The notes under the pieces were generated by a model. It made no database searches. It saw nothing but the letters and a program-made list of their open reading frames with translations, and was not told where the DNA came from. Below are positions 20,600 through 62,941 of a stretch of DNA of 64,000 nt, piece by piece (within the stretch, counting starts at the first letter, position 1; each line of letters begins with the position of its first letter). The position numbers and the translations under genes were made by a program. The stretch is taken from positions 72,474-136,473 of the forward strand of contig CAIYWC010000189.1 of NCBI GenBank assembly GCA_903929795.1, written 5' to 3'. The stretch comes from an uncultured Myxococcales bacterium (lineage in GTDB: Bacteria > Myxococcota_A > UBA9042).

Positions 20600-22033
20600 T
20601 CACGCGTCCAGTTTGCGCGTCAACAGCGCGGAGATCGCCTTGGCATCGGCCTTGCCGGCCAGCTGGCGCATGACCTGCCCGACAAAGAAACCGCTCAGCT
20701 GCTTTTGCCCCGCGCGGTACTTGGCGACTTCGCTGGGGAATTTCGCCAGCACCGCATCCACGACCGGCTCAAGCACGCCGTCGTCGCGCACCACCGCACC
20801 CGCCTGCGCCTCTGCGTGCGCGAGCGCGTCCGCCAGCCCGCGCGCGGTGTCGGCAAAGGCCAGTTGGAGCAGCTCCGCCAACATCTGGTTGGACAGCTGC
20901 CCGGCGCGCCACTTGCCGCAAATCCGCAGCAAATCCGCCATGGCCGCGGCCAGTTCCGGCCACGGGCGCTCATGGCGCTGCAGTTGAGCTTGGACCTGTG
21001 TCATCAGGAATGCGGCAAAAGCAGCCGCCAGCGCAGGCGAATCCGCGATCGCGCGGTCAAAAGCGTCGGCGCGCGGCGGCTCTTCCGCCAGCCAGTTGGA
21101 CGTCCGCGTCTCCAGAGAAAATTCCTGTTGATACCGAATCTTGCGCGCCGCCGGAAGCTCCGGCAGATCCACGCTTTGGGCGTCCAGCCACGCGTCGTCC
21201 AGCTGCAGCGGCGGCAGGTCCGGGTCGGGAAAATACCGGTAGTCCGCGGCCTCTTCCTTGGAGCGCATCGACTCGGTGCGCGCCAAATCCATGCTCCAGA
21301 GCCGGGTTTCCTGCCGGACCCGCTCGCCGTCGGCGATCACGCCCACCTGCCGGTCAACTTCGTACACGATCGCTTCGCGCACGCTGCGAAACGAGTTCAT
21401 GTTCTTGATTTCGACCCGCGTGCCCAACGCCGTCTGGCCGACCGGCCGCACGGAGACGTTGGCGTCGCAGCGCAAGGAGCCTTCCTCCATGTTGCCGTCG
21501 CAGACGCCCAGCGTCATCAGAATTCCCCGCAATTCCCGGAGGTACGCGACGGCCTCGTCCGCAGTGCGCAGGTCGGGATGGCCGACAATCTCGATGAGCG
21601 GCGTCCCCGCCCGGTTCAGGTCGACGCGGGTGCCAGCGTCGCCGTGGCTCGACTTGCCCGCGTCCTCTTCCAGATGAATCCGCTGAATGCGTGCGACCTT
21701 GCCATCGTCCAGGGTCAGCTGACCGTCCAGACAAATCGGCAGCTCGGCTTGGGTGATCTGGTAGCCTTTGGGCAGGTCCGGGTAGAAATAGTTCTTGCGG
21801 GCAAAAACCGACATTCGCTGGATCGCACACTGCGTGCCCAAACCCGCGCGCACGGCCAGCCGGACCACTTCCGCATTCAGCACCGGCAGCGCGCCGGGCA
21901 AGCCGAGGCAGACCGGACACGTGCGCGCATTGGGTGGCCCGCCGACCGCGACGGCACAGCCGCAGAAGATCTTGGTGCGCGTCAGCAGTTGCGCGTGGAC
22001 TTCCAGGCCGATGATCGCCTCGAACGCGCTCAT
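20600..22033 (-). CDS. gatB: Asp-tRNA(Asn)/Glu-tRNA(Gln) amidotransferase subunit B
   Basis: MSAFEAIIGLEVHAQL..KIFCGC start at 22033 with GGAGG upstream. C-terminal YqeY-like tail. The longer ORF start at 22345 was rejected. Confidence 0.92.
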   Translation of the reverse strand: MSAFEAIIGLEVHAQLLTRTKIFCGCAVAVGGPPNARTCPVCLGLPGALPVLNAEVVRLAVRAGLGTQCAIQRMSVFARKNYFYPDLPKGYQITQAELPICLDGQLTLDDGKVARIQRIHLEEDAGKSSHGDAGTRVDLNRAGTPLIEIVGHPDLRTADEAVAYLRELRGILMTLGVCDGNMEEGSLRCDANVSVRPVGQTALGTRVEIKNMNSFRSVREAIVYEVDRQVGVIADGERVRQETRLWSMDLARTESMRSKEEAADYRYFPDPDLPPLQLDDAWLDAQSVDLPELPAARKIRYQQEFSLETRTSNWLAEEPPRADAFDRAIADSPALAAAFAAFLMTQVQAQLQRHERPWPELAAAMADLLRICGKWRAGQLSNQMLAELLQLAFADTARGLADALAHAEAQAGAVVRDDGVLEPVVDAVLAKFPSEVAKYRAGQKQLSGFFVGQVMRQLAGKADAKAISALLTRKLDA

Positions 22034-23412
22034 GTGGCCTCCGGGGCAAAAGCGCGCTGCAGCACGTCGCCGACCGCCAGGATCATCGCTTCCTGGAACG
22101 GCTGGCCGACCAGCTGCGCGCCAATCGGCAGCTGCTGGGCATCCACGCCGACCGGCACCGACAACGCCGGCAAACCCGCCAGGCTCGGACCGACGGTGAA
22201 CGCGTCCATCAAGTACATCGCCAGCGGGTCCGCGGTCATCTGGCCCAGCAGCCAAGGCGGCACCGGCGACGTGGGCCCCAGCAGCACGTCGCACGATCGC
22301 CAGGCTGTCTGGAAATCCTCTGCGATCTTGCGGCGTACGCGGCATGCCTTCTGGTAAAACGCGTCCTGGAAGCCGGCCGACAGCGCGAATGTACCCAACA
22401 GGATGCGCCGCTGCACTTCACGCCCCAGGGACGCCGCGCGGCTGTGTGTATAGAGCGCGTCCAGGGTCGCCGGGTTTGGCGCACGCGCGCCATAGCGCAG
22501 GCCGTCGTAGCGGGACAGGTTGGCCGACGCCTCCGCCGTCGCGACCAGGTAATACGCCGCGATGCCATGGCGCGTGTGCGGCAGCGAGATGGGCACCAGC
22601 ACGGCCCCACGCGCGCGCAGGGCGTCCAGCGCGGCGTGAATGCGCGCCTGGATCTGGCTGTCCAGGCCGACGGCGTCATCCAGGTGCTCGCGCGCCACGC
22701 CCACGCGCAGGCCGGCAAGGTCGTCGCGCCACTGTACGGGCTGTACCGGCTGAACCGCCGAAGTCGCGTCCAACGCATCGTGACCGGCAAGCACGGCGTA
22801 GACCCGCGCCACGTCGCGCACGGTTTTCGCCAGCGGCCCGACCTGGTCGAGTGAGGACGCGTAGGCCACCACGCCCGAACGCGAGACGCGGCCGTAAGTC
22901 GGCTTGAGGCCTGCGAGACCGCAGAATGCCGCTGGCTGGCGAATCGAGCCTCCCGTGTCCGTACCCAGCGCCGCCCACGCCATGTCGGCTGCGATCGCCG
23001 CTGCTGAACCGCCGGAGCTGCCACCGGGCACGCGCGCCAAGTCCAGCGGATTGCGGGTCGGCGCGAAGCCGGAGAGCTCCGTGGACGACCCCATGCCAAA
23101 CTCGTCCAGGTTCGTCTTGCCGATCAGCACCGCGCCCGCCGCCAGCAGCCGCGTCACGACGGTCGCATCGCGCGCCGGCACGTAGCCCGCCAGCATCCGC
23201 GAGCCGGCTGTCAGCGGCTGGCCAGCCACGGCGATGTTGTCCTTGACCGCGATCGTCAGGCCGTGCAGCGGCGCGGACCCGTCCGCTCGCGCATCCAGCC
23301 AGGCCGCCCGTTGGCGCGCCCCGGCGGCATCGACATGCAGGAACGCGGCAACTTCGCCGTCGCGCGCGGCAATCTGCGCCAGGCAGGCCTCGACATGCGC
23401 GGTCGCGGTCAT
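22030..23412 (-). CDS. gatA: Glutamyl-tRNA(Gln) amidotransferase subunit A (amidase signature)
   Basis: Amidase motifs GGSSGGSAAAIA and ...GTDTGGSIRQPA. Overlaps the gatB start (ATGA). Confidence 0.92.
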   Translation of the reverse strand: MTATAHVEACLAQIAARDGEVAAFLHVDAAGARQRAAWLDARADGSAPLHGLTIAVKDNIAVAGQPLTAGSRMLAGYVPARDATVVTRLLAAGAVLIGKTNLDEFGMGSSTELSGFAPTRNPLDLARVPGGSSGGSAAAIAADMAWAALGTDTGGSIRQPAAFCGLAGLKPTYGRVSRSGVVAYASSLDQVGPLAKTVRDVARVYAVLAGHDALDATSAVQPVQPVQWRDDLAGLRVGVAREHLDDAVGLDSQIQARIHAALDALRARGAVLVPISLPHTRHGIAAYYLVATAEASANLSRYDGLRYGARAPNPATLDALYTHSRAASLGREVQRRILLGTFALSAGFQDAFYQKACRVRRKIAEDFQTAWRSCDVLLGPTSPVPPWLLGQMTADPLAMYLMDAFTVGPSLAGLPALSVPVGVDAQQLPIGAQLVGQPFQEAMILAVGDVLQRAFAPEAT

Positions 23413-23702
23413 CCGATCACCCGCGGCGTCAGAAAACAGCCATCCAGCTGCGCGGGCGCGTTCGCGAGGGCCTCCGCTTGGCTCAAGCCCGGTTGCGGCA
23501 CGTCAGGTCGCGTCATCAGGCCCTGTTCATGGGGGTGCACCAAGGGCGCCACGTCCGTCACGTCGATTTCATCCAGCACTGCGACGAGCGCCAGCACACG
23601 CTCCAAATCACGGGCGAGGTCGGGCAGCTCACCGTCGGCAACAGACAGCTTCGCCAGCTTGGCGACCTGACGCACCGCCTCGACGTCGACGTGCACCGCC
23701 AT
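23409..23702 (-). CDS. gatC: Glu-tRNA(Gln) amidotransferase subunit C
   Basis: 97-aa MAVHVDVEAVRQVAKLAKL... immediately upstream of gatA, overlapping its start. The longer 183-aa ORF was rejected as an Arg-rich artefact. Confidence 0.85.
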   Translation of the reverse strand: MAVHVDVEAVRQVAKLAKLSVADGELPDLARDLERVLALVAVLDEIDVTDVAPLVHPHEQGLMTRPDVPQPGLSQAEALANAPAQLDGCFLTPRVIG

Positions 23703-25087
23703 CAGTGGGCTCCGGGCGCGATTGCGCGGCCGGCGGCGACTTCGATCGCCGAGGTCAGCTCCGCGCGAATGCGGTCGCGCGCCTGCGGGGACGTCGCTTC
23801 GCACCGCAGCACAAGCACCGGTCCCGTGTTTGACGCACGCACAAGGCCCCAGCCATCGCTGAATTTCACGCGTACGCCGTCGATGTCGATGACGTCGTTG
23901 GTCGCGCGGAATTGCTCGGTCACGGCGGCGACGACGCCGAATTTGATCTCGTCCGGACATTCCAGCCGCAACTCCGGCGTCGCGAATGTCTGCGGCACAC
24001 CGGCCAGCAGGCTGGACAGCGGGCCCTCGTGACGGCTGAGGATCTCCAGCAGGCGGCAGGACGTGTAGGTCGCGTCGTCGTAGCCGAAGTATCGGTGTTT
24101 GTAGAAGATATGCCCGCTCATTTCGCCCGCCAGCAGCGCGTGCTCCTGTTTCATGCGGTCCTTGATCAGCGAATGGCCGACCCTGGACATGACCGGCCGA
24201 CCGCCGTGCGCCGCGATGTCGTCAAAAAGCGTTTGGCTGCACTTCACTTCGCCGACAATCGCCACGCCGGGCTCGACGGCCAGCAGTGCGCGCGACAGGA
24301 TAATCATCAGCTGGTCGCCCCAGAGCACGTGGCCTTGCTCGTCCAGCACGCCGATCCGGTCGCCATCGCCGTCGTACGCGATGCCCACGTCGGCGTGTTC
24401 CGCAAGCACGGCTTGGCGCAGGTCCAGCAGGTTCGCTTCCACGGTCGGATCCGGGTGGTGGTTGGGAAAGCGGCCGTCGGGCTCCGTGAATAAGCCAGTG
24501 ACCGACGCGCCCAGCCGCGCGAGGATCTGCGGCGAGATCGGCCCCGTTGGCCCGTTGCCGCAATCGACGACGACGCGCAGCTTGCGCGGCCCCAGGTCGA
24601 TGTGGCTCACCAGCCAGTCCGCATACGGCGTGTGGATGTCGACTTGCGTGACCACACCGGGCGCTGCCGCCACCGCGTAATCCGCGCTTTCCGTCAGGGC
24701 GCGCAGCTCCTGGATGTCCGCGCCATGGAGCGTGCCCAAGCCGAGCATGACCTTGCAGCCGTTATCTTCGGCCGGATTGTGGCTGCCAGTGATCATCGCG
24801 CCGCCGCCGACGCCCAGCGTGTGAACGGCGAAGTAGAGCATCGGCGTCGCGACCACGCCGATGTCGCGGACGGCGAGGCCGGTGGAAGTCAGGCCCTCGA
24901 CAAACGCGGCGTGGATGCGTGGACTGGACAGGCGCGCGTCGCGCCCCAGCGCGAACAAGGGCGGGCAGCCGCGGCGAATCGCCAGCGTACCGATCGCGCG
25001 CGCGATGGCGAAAGCGTCAGGCGAGGTCAAATCGCGGTCGGCAACGCCCCGGATGTCGTAGGCGCGGAAGATATTCGGGTTCATCAA
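23702..25087 (-). CDS. Phosphomannomutase/phosphoglucomutase (alpha-D-phosphohexomutase)
   Basis: Active-site loop TGSHNP, metal loop DGDGDR and sugar loop GEMSGH. Confidence 0.9.
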   Translation of the reverse strand: MMNPNIFRAYDIRGVADRDLTSPDAFAIARAIGTLAIRRGCPPLFALGRDARLSSPRIHAAFVEGLTSTGLAVRDIGVVATPMLYFAVHTLGVGGGAMITGSHNPAEDNGCKVMLGLGTLHGADIQELRALTESADYAVAAAPGVVTQVDIHTPYADWLVSHIDLGPRKLRVVVDCGNGPTGPISPQILARLGASVTGLFTEPDGRFPNHHPDPTVEANLLDLRQAVLAEHADVGIAYDGDGDRIGVLDEQGHVLWGDQLMIILSRALLAVEPGVAIVGEVKCSQTLFDDIAAHGGRPVMSRVGHSLIKDRMKQEHALLAGEMSGHIFYKHRYFGYDDATYTSCRLLEILSRHEGPLSSLLAGVPQTFATPELRLECPDEIKFGVVAAVTEQFRATNDVIDIDGVRVKFSDGWGLVRASNTGPVLVLRCEATSPQARDRIRAELTSAIEVAAGRAIAPGAH

Positions 25088-25164
25088 GCGTCCTGTCGGC
25101 CACGCGGCCGCGGCGCATGGTAAGTCGGCGATCGCGCTCGGGCAAGGCGATCGGCATGTTTTGT

Positions 25165-26664
25165 CAGGGCGATCGCAAGCTCCCGAACCCCTCGCAAAAT
25201 TGACGAAACCGCTCGCGCCTGATCTGCTGCATCACCACGGACTCGTGATCCGCGGTGATCATCATGAACGACCTCGACGGATATCGGCAACTTTACAGGC
25301 TTTCTGCGCAGATCCCCGACTGGCGGAGCGATCTCGGCAAGCTGCACAGGCTGACCGAAGTTCTCTTCATCATGGTGGTGGCGCTCATCGCCGGCGCGCA
25401 AGACTGCGAGGACATCCACGGTTTCGGCGACGAGAACGAACACTGGCTGCGGCAGCTCCTGACGCTCAAGCACGGAATCCCGCATCACGACATGTACTTG
25501 CGGACGCTGGCCGCAGTGCCGGCGGAGCAGTTCGAGGCGCTCGTGCGGGCGTGGACGGCCGCGCTGCGCGAGCCTGACGCGCTGAAGATCGACGGCCATC
25601 AGGTGGCTTTCGACGGCCAATCGCTGCGGGCAAGCGTGGATCGCTCGCTTGGCTCACTGCCGGTGCACATGGTTTCGGCATACCTGATCGAGGCTGGCTT
25701 CACTTTGGGCTCGAAGCGTGTGGACGAGAAATCCAACGAAATCATGGCAATTCCGGACCTGATGCGTTCGCTGAACCTGCGCGGCGCGACGGTGACCATC
25801 GATGCTATGGGCTGTCAGCGCGAGATTGCGGCGACTGCGCGGGAGGTGGGCGCGCACTACCAGCTGCAGGTCAAGGAGAACCAGCCGACGCTGCTGCAAA
25901 ACATCAAGACTTCCATGGTGGAAGCGACGCGGCGGCGACGTCCGGGTGAGGCGCCAGCCAAGCTGGAGCGGCACAAGGACGTCGACAAGGGGCACGGCAG
26001 GATCGAGACGCGCGCCTGCATTTTGTCCCGTGATCTCAGTGGTATCGAGAAACGCGACGACTGGCGCGACCTCTCAGGCATCGCCAGCGTGATGCGCGAG
26101 CGGACGGACGCCATCTCCGGCAAAACGTCACAGGAAATAGGCTATTACATCGTGAGTGATCCCTCAGCTACCGCAGCCGACGTGGCACGGCTCGCGCGGG
26201 GCCACTGGGGCATCGAGAACGGCCTGCACTGGTCGCTGGACGTCGTGTGGGGCTCGGACGCGCACGCGATCCGCGACCGCAATGCGGCGGAAAACATGGC
26301 GAGGCTGCGGCGGTTTTGCGCCGGCATGGTCAAGCAAAGCGTGGGATGGGGGATGAGCGGCAAGCGCGTGCGCAAGCTCGCCGGCTGGAATCCGAACAAC
26401 ATCCTGCGCGTCTTGGCCGGCGAGGTCATCGCCAAGAAACGAACCAAGGTCGCGCCGGTGAAGTACCGCAAGGCGCAGGAGGCGGCCAAGGCTGTCGCGA
26501 AGAAAAAGTAGCGACAGAAAAATCAGCCGGCATCGAGCGTGGACGGCAACCCGTCACGTCCGCTCGGGATTCGCCGGTGCGTCAAGAGCGGTCGACGCGT
26601 GGCGAAGGTTTGGAGGGACGGGCGACGTCAGGGCTGCGGGCGGGTCGAGCTTGCGACGGCCCTG
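25165..26664 (+). mobile_element. Complete ISAs1-family insertion sequence (1500 bp) with 18-bp imperfect terminal inverted repeats and a 10-bp target-site duplication CATGTTTTGT
   Basis: Left inverted repeat CAGGGCGATCGCAAGCTC (25165-25182). The right inverted repeat reverse-complements to CAGGGCCGTCGCAAGCTC (26647-26664), a 16/18 match. Direct repeats CATGTTTTGT at 25155-25164 and 26665-26674. One intact transposase ORF inside. Confidence 0.8.
25264..26511 (+). CDS. ISAs1-family (H-repeat-associated) DDE transposase
   Basis: Aligns along its length with E. coli YhhI/H-repeat protein: GAQDCEDIHGFG, SNEIMAIPDLM, TIDAMGCQREIA and HWGIENGLHWSLDVV. Confidence 0.9.
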   Translation: MNDLDGYRQLYRLSAQIPDWRSDLGKLHRLTEVLFIMVVALIAGAQDCEDIHGFGDENEHWLRQLLTLKHGIPHHDMYLRTLAAVPAEQFEALVRAWTAALREPDALKIDGHQVAFDGQSLRASVDRSLGSLPVHMVSAYLIEAGFTLGSKRVDEKSNEIMAIPDLMRSLNLRGATVTIDAMGCQREIAATAREVGAHYQLQVKENQPTLLQNIKTSMVEATRRRRPGEAPAKLERHKDVDKGHGRIETRACILSRDLSGIEKRDDWRDLSGIASVMRERTDAISGKTSQEIGYYIVSDPSATAADVARLARGHWGIENGLHWSLDVVWGSDAHAIRDRNAAENMARLRRFCAGMVKQSVGWGMSGKRVRKLAGWNPNNILRVLAGEVIAKKRTKVAPVKYRKAQEAAKAVAKKK

Positions 26665-27024
26665 CATGTTTTGTGGTTGATCAGACGCGGTTCGGCCTTC
26701 GCGCCGGGCCTCCACGCGGCCCGACAAAAGCCTCCCCCACTGGCGCCTGGCAAGCGCCAGACGCACCACCACCAAAGCGGCCCCGCGGCCTTGCGGCTGC
26801 GTCCGCCCCTCCGTTGTCAGCTGCCGGCTTCGCGCTGGCAACTGCCCGGAAGCCAGGTTGTGGGCCCGCGCACCATCGCCGCCCGTACGCGCGGTGGGTC
26901 CGTGGACAGGAGGCCCAGCTCGCCCCCCAGAACAGTATTCGCTCGGCGCTGGATTCTGCCGCGGACTCGAGCCAAGAAAAGTTCGCGTTCCGCGCATGTT
27001 CGCGTCGGAACAAGACGGTCCCAG

Positions 27025-27819
27025 CTACCGCCGCTCGCCCGCCACCCGGTCCAGCCGCAGCCGCTCGCGGTCGTCGGTCAGCTGGCGCAGCGTGCCCATC
27101 ACGGCCAGAAAAACCGCCAGCGCCGTCGCACCCGCCACGAGCAGGATAATCATCATCTGGTACTTGATCGCCTCCTGCGGCGATTGCCCGGTCAGGATCT
27201 GGCCGGTCATCATGCCCGGAATCATCACCAGCCCGGTCGCCGCCATGAGGTTGAGCGTCGGCAGCAGCGCCGTCCGCATCGCGCGTTGGAGGTGCGTGCG
27301 CATCGCTTGCTCAAAACGTTGGCCGAGCACGAGCTGCGCCTCGATGTTCACCCGCTCCCGCAGCGCGTTCTGCGTCAGGTTGTCGATGCCCAGCGCGACC
27401 GCGTTCATCACACTGCCCAGGATCATGCCGAGGATCGGGACCGCATAGCGCGGCGCGTACCAAGGCTTGGGCGAGAGCTGCGTCAGCAGCGCGTAGCCGA
27501 GCGTCGTCAGCCCCGCGACCGCGATGGCCGCGCCGGGCACCAAGAAGCCGTTGCGACCTGCCAGCGGCCGACCGATGCGCCGCCAGGTCTCCCACGCGGC
27601 AAAACCCAGCATGACGAGCACCGTCAACGCCGTCGCCAGCGCCGATTCCGTGTCAAAAAGCCACTGCAACACGACGGCCAGCAGGCTCAACTGCACGACC
27701 ATCCGCACAGCCGCGATCGCCAGCGGGCGCGCGAGCTTGAGCTGGAACCGAATCGACAGCCCCGCGTGCACAAGGAGCAGCAGGCTGGCCAGCGCGATGT
27801 CGACATACGTCAGATGCAT
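27025..27819 (-). CDS. fetB: FetB/YbbM-like (UPF0014) ABC-exporter permease
   Basis: About 8 TM. N-terminus HLTYVDIALASLLLL resembles E. coli FetB HNITNESLALALMLV. Start could also be ATG 27834. Confidence 0.75.
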   Translation of the reverse strand: MHLTYVDIALASLLLLVHAGLSIRFQLKLARPLAIAAVRMVVQLSLLAVVLQWLFDTESALATALTVLVMLGFAAWETWRRIGRPLAGRNGFLVPGAAIAVAGLTTLGYALLTQLSPKPWYAPRYAVPILGMILGSVMNAVALGIDNLTQNALRERVNIEAQLVLGQRFEQAMRTHLQRAMRTALLPTLNLMAATGLVMIPGMMTGQILTGQSPQEAIKYQMMIILLVAGATALAVFLAVMGTLRQLTDDRERLRLDRVAGERR

Positions 27820-27826
27820 CGCGCCG

Positions 27827-28438
27827 TCAGGCATGGCCGGCCTCCTGCAAGCCCGTGTGCTCCAGCACGAGCCGGTGGTCCGCGACGCGCTGGGCCTGGG
27901 CGGCGTCGTGCGTGACCCAAATCAGCGTCACGTCCGCCTGCTTGCGGGCCAGCAGCCAGTTCTCGGCGGCCAGCGCGGTCTCAGCATCCAGGTTGGCCGT
28001 CGGCTCGTCCAGCAGGAGCACCGGAGATTGGCACGCCACGGCGCGCAGCAGCGACAGCCGCTGACGTTCGCCGCTGGACAGGCGCGCGACCGGCCAGGTC
28101 CCGCAGTCCGCCGGCAAGCCCAGCGCGGTCAAATCCGCAGTCAGCGCGGCGATGTCGGTGAAATGCTCGGCCACGGTCTCCGCCCACCAGCCTGCCGCCG
28201 CCGGAACGTAGATCACTTGGCGCCGCCAGTCGTGCGGCGGACAGTCCGCTTGGCGCAGCGCGCCGAGGAACACGTCCCCACGGTGCGGATCCAGGTCGGC
28301 CAGCGCCCGCAGCAGCAGCGACTTGCCCACGCCCGACGGACCCATGATCGTCAGGCAGCGGCCGGGTTCAGCGACAAACGTGAACGGCCCACCGGCGGCG
28401 GTATGGACGTTTTCGCAGCGAAACCTGGGGACCGTCAT
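27827..28438 (-). CDS. fetA: FetA/YbbL-like ABC-transporter ATP-binding protein
   Basis: Walker A GPSGVGKS, signature LSSGERQR and Walker B LLLDEPT. Collinear with E. coli YbbL. Confidence 0.8.
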   Translation of the reverse strand: MTVPRFRCENVHTAAGGPFTFVAEPGRCLTIMGPSGVGKSLLLRALADLDPHRGDVFLGALRQADCPPHDWRRQVIYVPAAAGWWAETVAEHFTDIAALTADLTALGLPADCGTWPVARLSSGERQRLSLLRAVACQSPVLLLDEPTANLDAETALAAENWLLARKQADVTLIWVTHDAAQAQRVADHRLVLEHTGLQEAGHA

Positions 28439-28522
28439 GGGTGCGCCTCGCGCGTCAAGCGACTGCGGTGTGGCCGCGTGTGGCGGTGCGCGCGTGCGAT
28501 CGAACCAACCACCGCACCCTGC

Positions 28523-29611
28523 TTATAACAGGTCCGCGCGCCCCAGCTTGCTCAATTCCGCCACGACCAGGCGCACGTCCTGCGACCGGTCCAGCGGCAC
28601 CACCAGCGTCGCGTCGTCCGTGGCCACGACGGCCATGTTGCGCAAGCCCACGGCGGCCAGGTACGGCCCTTTGGAGATCAGCACGCTGTGGTGCGTGTCC
28701 ACCGCCAGCACGGGGCCGTGCACGAAATTGTGCTCGCCGTCCGGCCGCAAACCCAGCACGCTGTGCCAAGTGCCCACGTCCGACCAGCCCGCGTCCAGCC
28801 GCACGCAGCGGATGTCCGGCTCATGCTCCGCCACGCCGTAGTCGATGCTGACGTTCGGACAATTCGGGAACGTCACGCGCAGCAGTGCCTCGAAGGCGTC
28901 GCCGTCGTAGCGGTGCTTGTTGTCGCGCAACTCATGGAGAACACGCCCAATTTCTGGAACATGCGCGTCCAGCGCGCGCAACGCCTTGTCCGCCCGCAGG
29001 ACAAACACGCCGGCGTTCCACAAGTGCTTGCCGCCCAACAGGTATTGCTCGGCGGTCTCCAGGCTCGGCTTCTCGACAAAACGTTCGACCGCGTAACCCG
29101 CCGCGTCCAGCGATTCGCCCAGTTGGATGTAGCCGTAACCCGTTTCCGGCGTCGTCGGCTGGATGCCCAGCGTCACGATATGGCCGCGATCCGCATGCAC
29201 GGCCGCCCGCACGATCGCCTCCCGGAATGCCGCCGCGTCCGCGACGAAATGGTCGGACGGCAGCAGCACCAGGATCGCATCTTCGACCAACTGCTCCGCG
29301 ACGATCGCGGCGATCGCCATGCACGGCGCCGTGTTCCGCGGCGCGGGCTCGGCCAGGATCTGCCCCGGTCCGAGCTCCGGCAGCACGGCTTGGACGGCGT
29401 CCCGCAGGTGCCCAGCGGTCACGCACAGCTGCCGCTCCGGCGGGCACAGCGCCGCGATGCGGTCCATCGTGACCCGCAGCAGCGTCTTGTCGCCAAAAAA
29501 CTGCAGCAGCTGCTTGGGCTCGTGTTTGCGGCTCAGTGGCCAAAAGCGCGTGCCCGAACCGCCGGCCATGACCGCGCAAACGATGCGATCTTCAAGCGAT
29601 TTCGTCGTCAC
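28523..29611 (-). CDS. manC: Mannose-1-phosphate guanylyltransferase (GDP-mannose pyrophosphorylase)
   Basis: N-terminal nucleotidyltransferase motif VMAGGSGTRFWPLS. Confidence 0.85.
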   Translation of the reverse strand: MTTKSLEDRIVCAVMAGGSGTRFWPLSRKHEPKQLLQFFGDKTLLRVTMDRIAALCPPERQLCVTAGHLRDAVQAVLPELGPGQILAEPAPRNTAPCMAIAAIVAEQLVEDAILVLLPSDHFVADAAAFREAIVRAAVHADRGHIVTLGIQPTTPETGYGYIQLGESLDAAGYAVERFVEKPSLETAEQYLLGGKHLWNAGVFVLRADKALRALDAHVPEIGRVLHELRDNKHRYDGDAFEALLRVTFPNCPNVSIDYGVAEHEPDIRCVRLDAGWSDVGTWHSVLGLRPDGEHNFVHGPVLAVDTHHSVLISKGPYLAAVGLRNMAVVATDDATLVVPLDRSQDVRLVVAELSKLGRADLL

Positions 29612-30283
29612 TCAGGCCTCCGCGCCGGAGACGGCCAGCTTGCGCAGCTGGGCCGCGACGCGCATCGGCGCGCCGGTCAGGCGGAGCACTTCTTCCACGC
29701 TTGTGTCGTCGGCGATCTCGATCAGCTCCAAGCCCGTCGGCGTCACGTCGATGACGGCCAAGTCCGTGACGATGCGGTTCACACACGTGCGGCCCGTCAG
29801 CGGCAGCGTGCATTCGGCAAGAATCTTTGGTTCACCTGTCTTTTCACAGTGTTGCATCGTCACGACTACGCGCCGCGCGCCCGCCACCAGATCCATCGCG
29901 CCGCCCATGCCCTTGACCATCTTGCCCGGCACGACCCAGTTCGCCAGATCGCCGCGCGCCGACACCTGCAGCGCGCCCAGCACCGTGATGTCCACATGGC
30001 CGCCGCGGATCATCGCGAATGATTCCGCAGAGCTGAAGTACGACGCACCCGGCATCTCGGTAATCGTCTGCTTGCCCGCGTTGATGAGATCCGGATCCTC
30101 GTCGCCTTCATACGGAAACGGTCCGACGCCCAACATACCGTTTTCACTCTGCAAAATCACGTCGATGCCCGTCGGAATGTAGTTCGCGACAAGCGTCGGA
30201 ATCCCGATGCCGAGGTTGACGTAATAGCCGTCGCGCAGCTCCTCGGCGACCCGGGCGGCGATTTCAAGGCGTGAGAGCGGCAT
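29612..30283 (-). CDS. scoB: 3-oxoacid CoA-transferase subunit B (ScoB/AtoA family); no A subunit adjacent
   Basis: Conserved ...SENG..GVGP...[28 protein letters not shown] core. Flanked by manC and a HEAT-repeat gene, not by an A subunit. Confidence 0.8.
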
Positions 30284-30307
30284 CTTTCCTCCAACAACGA
30301 CAGGCAG

Positions 30308-31531
30308 TTACGGCTTAACCGGCTTCTTGGGATTGTCCTTGTGATCCAGCCCGGCGTATTCGCGCCACGGCTTCTCGTCGGAGCCATAGTGCATGCCGGT
30401 CAGGTTCTCCAAGGCGAAAACCACGTGATTGACCAGCGATTTACTGTCCAGCCGCAGCAGCGGCACCAGTTCCGGCACGATCGTCTTGTCGCCCAAGGAC
30501 GGCAGCATGCGCAGGATGCGCACGGCCTCGTCGGGTTCACCACTCAGCGGCAGCGCCTGCAGCCGCTTGAGCAACACCACCGATGCGCCCGACGGCTTGA
30601 GCGCGACAACCGCCGCCTGCAGGGCAATCCGCTCGTCGGGCTCGATGTCGTCGCGCACCGCCGTGGCAAGCACGCGCAGGCCCGCCGAGCTCATCTTCAG
30701 CGCGACGAGCGCCTGCGCCGCCTCCGCCCGCGCGCCCGGCGTGTCCAGCCCCGCCAGCGCGGCGTTGTCCGCCCACGGTGTCGGCACCGCCGCGAGCACG
30801 CGCAGCGCTGCCCGGGCGACTTCCCGCGGCGTCGCGTCCACCAGCATCGTCGCGAGCGGCACCGCCGACTGCGCGCGCAGCGCCGCGAGCGCGTCCAGCG
30901 CCGGCGCCCGCACCATCGACAGCGTCCGTGGCGCGGCGGCGAGCGCCAGCAGCTCCGGTTCGGCGTCCGCGTTGCCGATCATGCCCAGCGCGTGGGCCGT
31001 GGCCGCCTGAACCCGCGGCGCGCCGGCCGACAACAACTGCCGCAGCGGCGCGACCGCAGCCTGAAACCGCAGCAGCCCGAGGGCCCCCGCGGCCAGAATT
31101 TGCGCCCGCTGGTCGGTGCCTCCCAGCATCTTCAGGAGCGCCGGTGCGGCGCGCGCATCACCCAAGCGCGCCTGGGCCGAGCGAATATCCGCGGTGGACG
31201 GGTCATCGGACAGGCTCGCGCCCGCAGCGTCCAGCGCATCCACCTCCGTGCGCGCGTCCAGCAGGCTGAGCGCCAGCGCGATCTTGCCGGCATCGCGCGG
31301 TGTCGCGCCCTTGAGCTGCGCGGCCAGGGCCTTCGCGACGTCATCGCGGCTCGCGAGCGCCGCGCTCAGCGCGGGACAGGTGCCAAACGCCAGGCTGTCG
31401 CATAGCAGCAAATCCTTGGCAATTTCAGGCGCATCGGCGGCCGGCGCCGGCGCCGGGGCCGGGGCCGGGGCTTGGGCAAAAGCAGGCGACGTCAGGGCGG
31501 CGACCAGGAACACGAGCAGGGCACGGGTCAT
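30308..31531 (-). CDS. Secreted HEAT/ARM-like repeat protein
   Basis: ATG 31531. Signal peptide MTRALLVFLVAALTSPAFA followed by (AP)5. Repeated helical ~35-aa units with LLxxL...ALG patterns. Confidence 0.6.
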   Translation of the reverse strand: MTRALLVFLVAALTSPAFAQAPAPAPAPAPAADAPEIAKDLLLCDSLAFGTCPALSAALASRDDVAKALAAQLKGATPRDAGKIALALSLLDARTEVDALDAAGASLSDDPSTADIRSAQARLGDARAAPALLKMLGGTDQRAQILAAGALGLLRFQAAVAPLRQLLSAGAPRVQAATAHALGMIGNADAEPELLALAAAPRTLSMVRAPALDALAALRAQSAVPLATMLVDATPREVARAALRVLAAVPTPWADNAALAGLDTPGARAEAAQALVALKMSSAGLRVLATAVRDDIEPDERIALQAAVVALKPSGASVVLLKRLQALPLSGEPDEAVRILRMLPSLGDKTIVPELVPLLRLDSKSLVNHVVFALENLTGMHYGSDEKPWREYAGLDHKDNPKKPVKP

Positions 31532-31756
31532 CAGAACCTCCGGGACGCTGGACACGCTGACCGCAATCGAAGCGCGCAGTCTGCCGGACCGCGGCACCCC
31601 ACCGGAGGCGCACGCGCGCGGTCCAGCCGGAAACGCCACAGGTCTACCCGACAACGCTTGGGTTCGTCCCAAGTCAGCGTGCATAGTCTGCGGCCGCGGC
31701 GCGCGCGTGTCGAGTCAGAAGCGGGGCAAAATCACCGTGGACACGGGTCGGCGCCG

Positions 31757-62865: not shown

Positions 62866-62941
62866 GGTCGGGGAGACAGGATTCGAACCTGCGACATCCT
62901 GCTCCCAAAGCAGGCGCGCTACCGGACTGCGCTACTCCCCG
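62866..62941 (-). tRNA. tRNA-Pro (anticodon UGG)
   Basis: Reverse complement reads CGGGGAG-TA-GCGC-AGTCCGGTA-GCGC-G-CCTGC-TTTGGGA-GCAGG-...GGTTCGAATCC...-CTCCCCG-ACC. It has a 7-bp acceptor stem, D and T arms, and anticodon-loop TTTGGGA giving UGG. CCA is not encoded. Confidence 0.85.

Follow-up and report, generated by a model that had tools for sequence, protein, structure and literature searches.

A complete, recently inserted and polymorphic ISAs1-family insertion sequence in an uncultured Myxococcales bacterium

Structure of the locus

We analysed a 64-kb stretch of DNA from an uncultured Myxococcales bacterium (contig CAIYWC010000189.1, positions 72,474 to 136,473; the whole stretch is referred to as the window, and all coordinates below are positions in it), in which a complete insertion sequence (IS) of the ISAs1 family lies between a phosphohexomutase gene of the PGM/PMM family and a gene for a FetB-like ABC permease. 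The order at the locus is manC, ABC ATPase, FetB-like permease, IS, mutase, gatC, gatA and gatB, with all of the neighbouring genes on the minus strand; the IS interrupts the 430-bp spacer between the permease and mutase genes (the fetB-PMM spacer), and its transposase gene is antiparallel to these neighbours. We consider it nearly certain that this is a complete, autonomous element that inserted recently, is polymorphic at this site, exists in multiple copies and is very probably still able to transpose.

The IS is 1500 bp long (25165-26664, plus strand), a length delimited by its inverted repeats (IRs), by comparison with the empty site and by full-length copies elsewhere. The inverted-repeat search placed an 18-bp left repeat (IRL), CAGGGCGATCGCAAGCTC, at 25165-25182 on the plus strand, and an 18-bp right repeat (IRR), whose reverse complement is CAGGGCCGTCGCAAGCTC, at 26647-26664 on the minus strand. 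The two agree at 16 of 18 positions (18-nt arms, 89% complementary), both begin with CAGGGC, and their length falls inside the 14-22 bp range of the ISAs1 family; the original prediction of 18-bp repeats with a family-typical start was thus borne out. Both repeats adjoin, directly on the inner side, the two copies of a 10-bp target-site duplication (TSD), CATGTTTTGT, which were read from the sequence at 25155-25164 (left) and 26665-26674 (right) and which correspond to a single copy in the empty-site contigs described below. These are the only two copies of CATGTTTTGT in the window, where 0.04 would be expected by chance, and none of 100 dinucleotide-preserving shuffles contained two or more.

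Only one open reading frame (ORF) is found in the 1500 bp, and there are no passenger genes. Searches of the window by blastn and tblastn, with the IS and its transposase, return this one copy of the element; a composite transposon was ruled out, given that no second IS copy was found in the 64 kb.

The transposase gene (25264-26511, plus strand) is followed by a 3' non-coding part of the IS (26512-26646, plus strand) that contains a 13-nt motif, GGCGACGTCAGGG, at 26620-26632, approximately 30 bp inward of the right IR. This motif repeats the CAGGG tip and is invariant between the window IS and a 79% identical relative, L015 (at about 2860-2875 of that contig), whereas the adjoining non-coding DNA is far more diverged; the motif may be a subterminal transposase-binding site. 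In the left non-coding part, a TTGACG hexamer (25200-25205) is invariant in the window and in two relatives (L014 and L015), and is a plausible candidate for the -35 box of a transposase promoter; no matching -10 box passed the scan. The 153-nt 3' non-coding end of the IS has no unusual RNA fold (z = -0.21), and Rfam gives no match in or beside the IS, either over 23000-29000 at E<=1 or over the whole window at gathering thresholds. A tRNA-Pro gene (TGG) at 62866-62941 on the minus strand is the sole RNA gene detected across the 64 kb.

The transposase and its family

The transposase ORF (25255-26511, plus strand) is uninterrupted, and its likeliest start, the ATG at 25264, gives a protein of 415 amino acids. 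Two Pfam domains are matched, PF13808 (DDE_Tnp_1_assoc) over residues 18-101 and PF01609 (DDE_Tnp_1) over residues 136-354, and the NCBIfam equivalog model NF033564 (transpos_ISAs1, 'ISAs1 family transposase') is matched at 317.6 bits (cut-off 70 bits) over model positions 1-313 of 314. YhhI of Escherichia coli K-12 aligns with the protein end to end (31% identity, 385 amino acids, E 5e-57), and the two have in common the blocks DG.sLR, DEKSNEI.AIP.L, DAMGCQ and HW.IEN.LHW.LDV. From their positions in these YhhI-conserved blocks, D117, D180 and E318 are the predicted DDE triad and thus the putative catalytic residues. The full-length transposase with conserved YhhI/H-repeat blocks that the original prediction described, and its assignment of an intact element to the ISAs1 family, were therefore confirmed by the uninterrupted ORF, the profile score and the alignment.

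Comparison with diverged relatives gives ratios of nonsynonymous to synonymous substitution rates (dN/dS) for the transposase of 0.23 against L014 (78% amino acid identity) and 0.16 against L095 (85% amino acid identity), indicating purifying selection for a working transposase. The protein runs approximately 55 residues past the ISAs1 profile (residues 359-415; window 26338-26508) to a lysine-rich end, KKRTKVAPVKYRKAQEAAKAVAKKK, and this C-terminal tail is retained in the 78% relative, L014.

All of the sequence-level features by which the ISAs1 family is recognized are present: the profile match, the domains, the inverted repeats, the TSD, and the size together with a single ORF. According to the literature, the IRs of the family are 14-22 bp long and open with CAGGG, and the direct repeat measures 10 bp (PMC11946415); the window IS agrees with this.

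Empty and filled alleles of the insertion site

Empty-site contigs were found in several metagenome assemblies by exact-sequence look-up of both flanking proteins. The 130-nt junction that is predicted when the IS and one repeat copy are removed occurs exactly in L007/L010 (ERZ27313616) and in L011 (ERZ18668069), and the same single-copy junction occurs, over a shorter stretch up to the contig ends, in L008 (ERR4195071) and L013 (ERZ18626337). Each of these contigs carries one CATGTTTTGT and is 99.8-99.9% identical to the window flanks. The gap between fetB and PMM is 430 bp in the empty allele, exactly 1510 bp less than the 1940 bp of the window, and six further contigs have the same 430-bp spacing, as judged from gene coordinates only. 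Deleting 1510 bp from the filled allele gives the empty site base for base, indicating that the duplication is exactly 10 bp, and the perfect TSD proposed in the original prediction, including the expectation that an empty site would hold a single copy of it, is confirmed.

The filled allele is likewise seen outside the window. An identical left junction was recovered independently in L005 (ERZ18626171); L009, from the same sample as L005, stops at the IS boundary, on the last base of the repeat; and contig lTsc3DDT (ERZ1426691) has the layout expected for a filled junction, from its gene positions. Empty and filled alleles thus occur in near-identical DNA, indicating that the insertion is polymorphic within one species-level population and is recent. 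Presence or absence at the site varies among samples, and the site could serve as a strain-level marker.

Two other explanations for an IS at this position bear on these data. One is that the IS was never inserted here in any genome and was placed at the locus by a repeat-induced join during metagenome assembly, a concern raised by the source collection (which consists of metagenome assemblies) and by other contigs that carry the IS and look clearly chimeric across it. A mis-join, however, would not produce an exact 10-bp duplication of a stretch that the empty allele has only once, and deletion of 1510 bp gives a base-exact empty site; the left junction, moreover, is independent in L005, L009 stops at the same boundary and lTsc3DDT agrees by gene positions. 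We regard mis-assembly as highly improbable. The other explanation, that the ISAs1-like gene here is old, fixed or domesticated and comparable with the Rhs-associated H-repeat/YhhI of E. coli, draws on the homology of the transposase to YhhI. It is refuted by the existence of empty sites in near-identical genomes; in addition, the element retains both intact IRs and its TSD, other contexts contain near-identical copies (see below), and Pfam and NCBIfam searches show no Rhs gene beside the IS; the chance that it is correct is, in our estimate, slighter even than that of mis-assembly. A real and recent insertion is the reading that we retain.

Copies at other sites and probable activity of the element

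The exact 415-residue protein occurs on 23 contigs, the longest of 198,733 bp, and a D265G variant occurs on five more. In eight contigs (L001-L006, L096 and L097) the 1500-bp IS is 99.87-100% identical to the window copy and has identical ends, in flanks that differ and that represent at least six other sequence contexts; in four of them (L001-L003 and L006) the sole difference from the window copy is at IS position 975 (A or C), and it is synonymous. Together with the window, these contigs contain at least five distinct left flanks and at least six distinct right flanks. A second insertion, cleanly resolved, is that in L097, which has a 10-bp TSD of its own, CCTCTTGACC; a third, in L003, has a 9-bp TSD, CGCGGGCGG, at positions 1086-1094 and 2595-2603 of that contig. 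These identical termini and near-identical bodies in several contexts agree with the expectation that other copies would have the same ends. Among the target sequences, CATGTTTTGT has 30% guanine plus cytosine (GC) and CGCGGGCGG has 100% GC, with no obvious preference for target composition.

Several points weigh against the reading of a multi-copy, currently active element. Of three sites, two have a TSD of 10 bp and one has a TSD of 9 bp, which suggests a one-base variation in stagger length; the pairing of TSD copies flanking other copies worked for L003 (9 bp) and L097 (10 bp) only. In L001, L002, L004 and L005 the flanks on the two sides of the IS do not match (in L005, for example, the left flank is that of the present locus and the right flank is a different one). 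These four contigs are probably assembly chimeras at the repeat, although it is possible that they record IS-mediated rearrangements (inversions or deletions) in the population; because of such chimeric contigs, the independent sites counted are a lower bound, and which flanks belong together is uncertain. For the element's own genome, the count covers the window (one copy), and current activity is judged from sequence identity and polymorphism.

We nevertheless conclude from the identity of the copies that the IS is multi-copy, has very probably been active recently and is very probably still able to transpose. The original prediction of a recent, probably still active insertion agrees with both the empty alleles and the 99.87-100% identical copies elsewhere. 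In the proposed mechanism, a single DDE-type transposase would bind the 18-bp terminal IRs and join the ends of the IS to a target cleaved with a 10-bp stagger, and repair of the stagger would leave the flanking duplication of CATGTTTTGT; the insertion into the 430-bp fetB-PMM spacer took place recently, during the diversification of one species-level population. We infer this strand-transfer mechanism, like any effect on the neighbouring genes. To our knowledge, the transposition of ISAs1 elements has been little studied.

Other observations concern the coding context of the copies. The first 98 bases of the IS (25165-25262) are open on the minus strand, opposite the transposase gene. At other sites, according to the gene calls of L001-L006, outward-reading ORFs of 352-831 amino acids start inside the left end of the IS, which at these sites has probably interrupted the 5' ends of genes; at the window locus the minus-strand frame ends at the IS boundary, at a TGA spanning the junction, giving a call of 32 amino acids. 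Contig Atp1ChpQ (ERZ1426828, 69,663 bp) carries the D265G variant between a family-2 glycosyltransferase gene and mfd (which encodes the transcription-repair coupling factor), by gene calls. L097 seemingly represents the same site as Atp1ChpQ, and the IS there lies just upstream of the downstream ORF.

Neighbouring genes, base composition and possible effects on expression

The mutase gene (23702-25084, minus strand) encodes four PGM_PMM Pfam domains, and the NCBIfam model that it matches best is PgmG (509 bits, under the cut-off of 600). On the other side of the IS lie the gene for the UPF0014/FetB-like ABC permease (27025-27834, minus strand; PF03649, 242.6 bits) and, both identified by profile searches, the FetA-like ABC ATPase gene (27827-28438, minus strand) and manC (28523-29611, minus strand). 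The permease scores 121.8 bits against TIGR00245 (FetB), under the cut-off of 410, and the FetA match is also far under its cut-off. Because the mutase and the FetA- and FetB-like proteins score under the equivalog cut-offs, their names are approximate: the identities given to the flanking genes in the original prediction were broadly right, and the exact specificities of the mutase and of the FetA/FetB-like proteins are tentative. The suggestion that the IS separates the phosphomannomutase gene from manC does not stand, because the fetA/fetB-like genes already lie between the two in the empty allele.

Beyond these genes, the gatB frame is open for 581 codons (20600-22345, minus strand), the gene calls on near-identical contigs give 477 amino acids, and the GatB_N domain begins at residue 111; the 581-residue ORF is an upstream extension that overlaps gatA and not a larger protein. 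A stretch of 76% GC at 30500-31250, the highest within 20-32 kb, lies in a gene for a HEAT-repeat protein (30308-31684, minus strand), directly after a trough of 59% GC at 30000-30500.

The GC content of the IS is 64.1%, compared with a window mean of 67.1% (standard deviation 2.4%), a value matched or undercut by 11% of all 1500-bp segments that the IS value is compared with; at third codon positions the transposase has a GC content of 0.82, compared with 0.85-0.90 in its neighbours. The previously noted dip in GC is therefore real but small. Given that it falls within the local range and that third-position GC is near that of the neighbours, composition provides no independent evidence of foreign origin, and we rejected GC content as a sign of such origin as uninformative.

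The IS lies 80 bp upstream of the ATG of the mutase gene (measured from the IS left end), and the stop codon of the FetB-like gene is 350 bp from the right TSD copy. This position invites a different reading of the polymorphism, in which the insertion alters expression of the PGM/PMM-gatCAB genes, either because the IS isolates them from read-through or from a spacer promoter or because it supplies an outward promoter at its left end, and in which presence or absence of the IS is selectively relevant. Besides the short distance to the mutase start, the neighbours are on the same strand, so that co-transcription is possible; the native fetB-PMM spacer has no terminator-like site in a consensus scan; and filled alleles occur in more than one sample (the window, L005 with L009, and lTsc3DDT by gene layout). 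However, when the filled locus and the empty spacer were scanned for sigma-70 and intrinsic-terminator consensus sequences, no promoter emerged in the native spacer, the remaining 80 bp or the IS left end (the scan was strict, and host promoters may differ); the only terminator-like sites, at a frequency expected by chance, lay within fetB and on the antisense strand of the transposase gene. Filled alleles persist although the tRNA-dependent amidotransferase encoded by gatCAB is normally essential, which argues that any effect is not a complete block.

It is possible that the IS disrupts a regulatory region in the spacer, as was originally suggested; overall, an effect on expression with selective relevance seems to us unlikely, if not negligibly so. 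We give still less credence to the stronger proposal that the polymorphism is non-neutral, the IS rewiring transcription of the mutase and gatCAB (by a polar block of manC-fetAB read-through or by an outward promoter) and being kept by selection in some lake populations. With expression data, the position just upstream of PGM/PMM-gatCAB could become of local physiological interest.

Comparison with known systems

The importance of this element beyond annotation is small. The element, which is well delimited and apparently active, comes from a high-GC freshwater bacterium that is uncultured, and with its ends, 10-bp TSD and empty site verified it could be entered and named in ISfinder; it also provides a natural example of ISAs1 elements making 10-bp, and occasionally 9-bp, duplications.

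The closest relatives came from environmental sequence. In a scan of GTDB (one genome per species) the best matches were L014 (CAIYBN010000085.1) and L015 (CAIPXZ010000517.1), at 79% protein identity, both from lake metagenome-assembled genomes (MAGs) labelled 'uncultured Myxococcales', and the remaining matches were at or below approximately 44%. The 'Myxococcales' labels give no more than a hint at the origin of the present element, since ISs are transferred horizontally. The L014 contig, 1510 bp long, starts precisely at the IRL. A third relative, L095 (JGI metagenome contig Ga0073936_10097330), is 85.5% identical and has an identical 41-nt left end. These three resemble the window IS in protein (78-85% identity), in length class, in the C-terminal tail and in the IRL, CAGGGCGATCGCAAGCTC being kept in all of them; they differ from it in that DNA identity is just 79-85%, and the ends of L015 are slightly degenerate (ACGGGC on the left and ...CCCTA on the right). 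Among more distant matches, a Planctomycetota MAG, MFD00731.bin.2.201 (CAWHCN01; L017-L028, L060, L062 and L090), contains at least 14 ISAs1 copies with transposases approximately 41-44% identical to that of the window, in what looks like an IS expansion.

The family prototype is ISAs1 of Aeromonas salmonicida, and the family size range in ISfinder is approximately 1.2-1.5 kb. The window IS has in common with the family a single DDE transposase (PF13808 and PF01609), CAGGG IRs, a 10-bp direct repeat and the lack of passenger genes; it is distinguished by its length of 1500 bp, at the top of that range, by its lysine-rich C-terminal tail of approximately 30 amino acids and by the 9-bp TSD of a sister copy.

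A published element allows a closer comparison. ISArsp11, an ISAs1-family element of the Arthrobacter plasmid pA58H3, is 1306 bp long, with a 19-bp IR, CAGGGCTGATGCAAAGTCG, and a 10-bp direct repeat (PMC6305408). CAGGGCTGATGCAAAGTCG and the CAGGGCGATCGCAAGCTC of the window have a common core, CAGGGC..GAT.GCAA, and both elements have a 10-bp direct repeat and a single transposase gene; they differ in length (1306 and 1500 bp) and in their IRs (19 and 18 bp). The CAGGG repeats and 10-bp direct repeat of the original prediction accordingly match those of published ISAs1 elements (PMC11946415, PMC6305408).

Across 72,556 plasmids, all annotated ISAs1 transposases are less than 40% identical to that of the window. 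ISKpn31 and other plasmid ISAs1 transposases are homologous to it over their full length (89-94% of the protein), with identities of 35.8% for ISKpn31 and 39.9% for the best annotated plasmid copy, from Paraburkholderia. By usual ISfinder naming practice, the window IS would be a distinct IS that has not yet been named.

A further system compared is the Rhs-associated YhhI/H-repeat of E. coli, in which 31% identity extends over the whole protein and the blocks of the catalytic region are common to both. The yhhI gene of E. coli K-12 (b3484) lies beside rhsB and is annotated only as a putative transposase; unlike YhhI, the window IS has intact IRs and a TSD, empty alleles and multiple copies. 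Judged by its sequence, the element in the window adds a further member, so far unnamed and otherwise ordinary, to the well-known ISAs1 family and does not represent a new kind of element.

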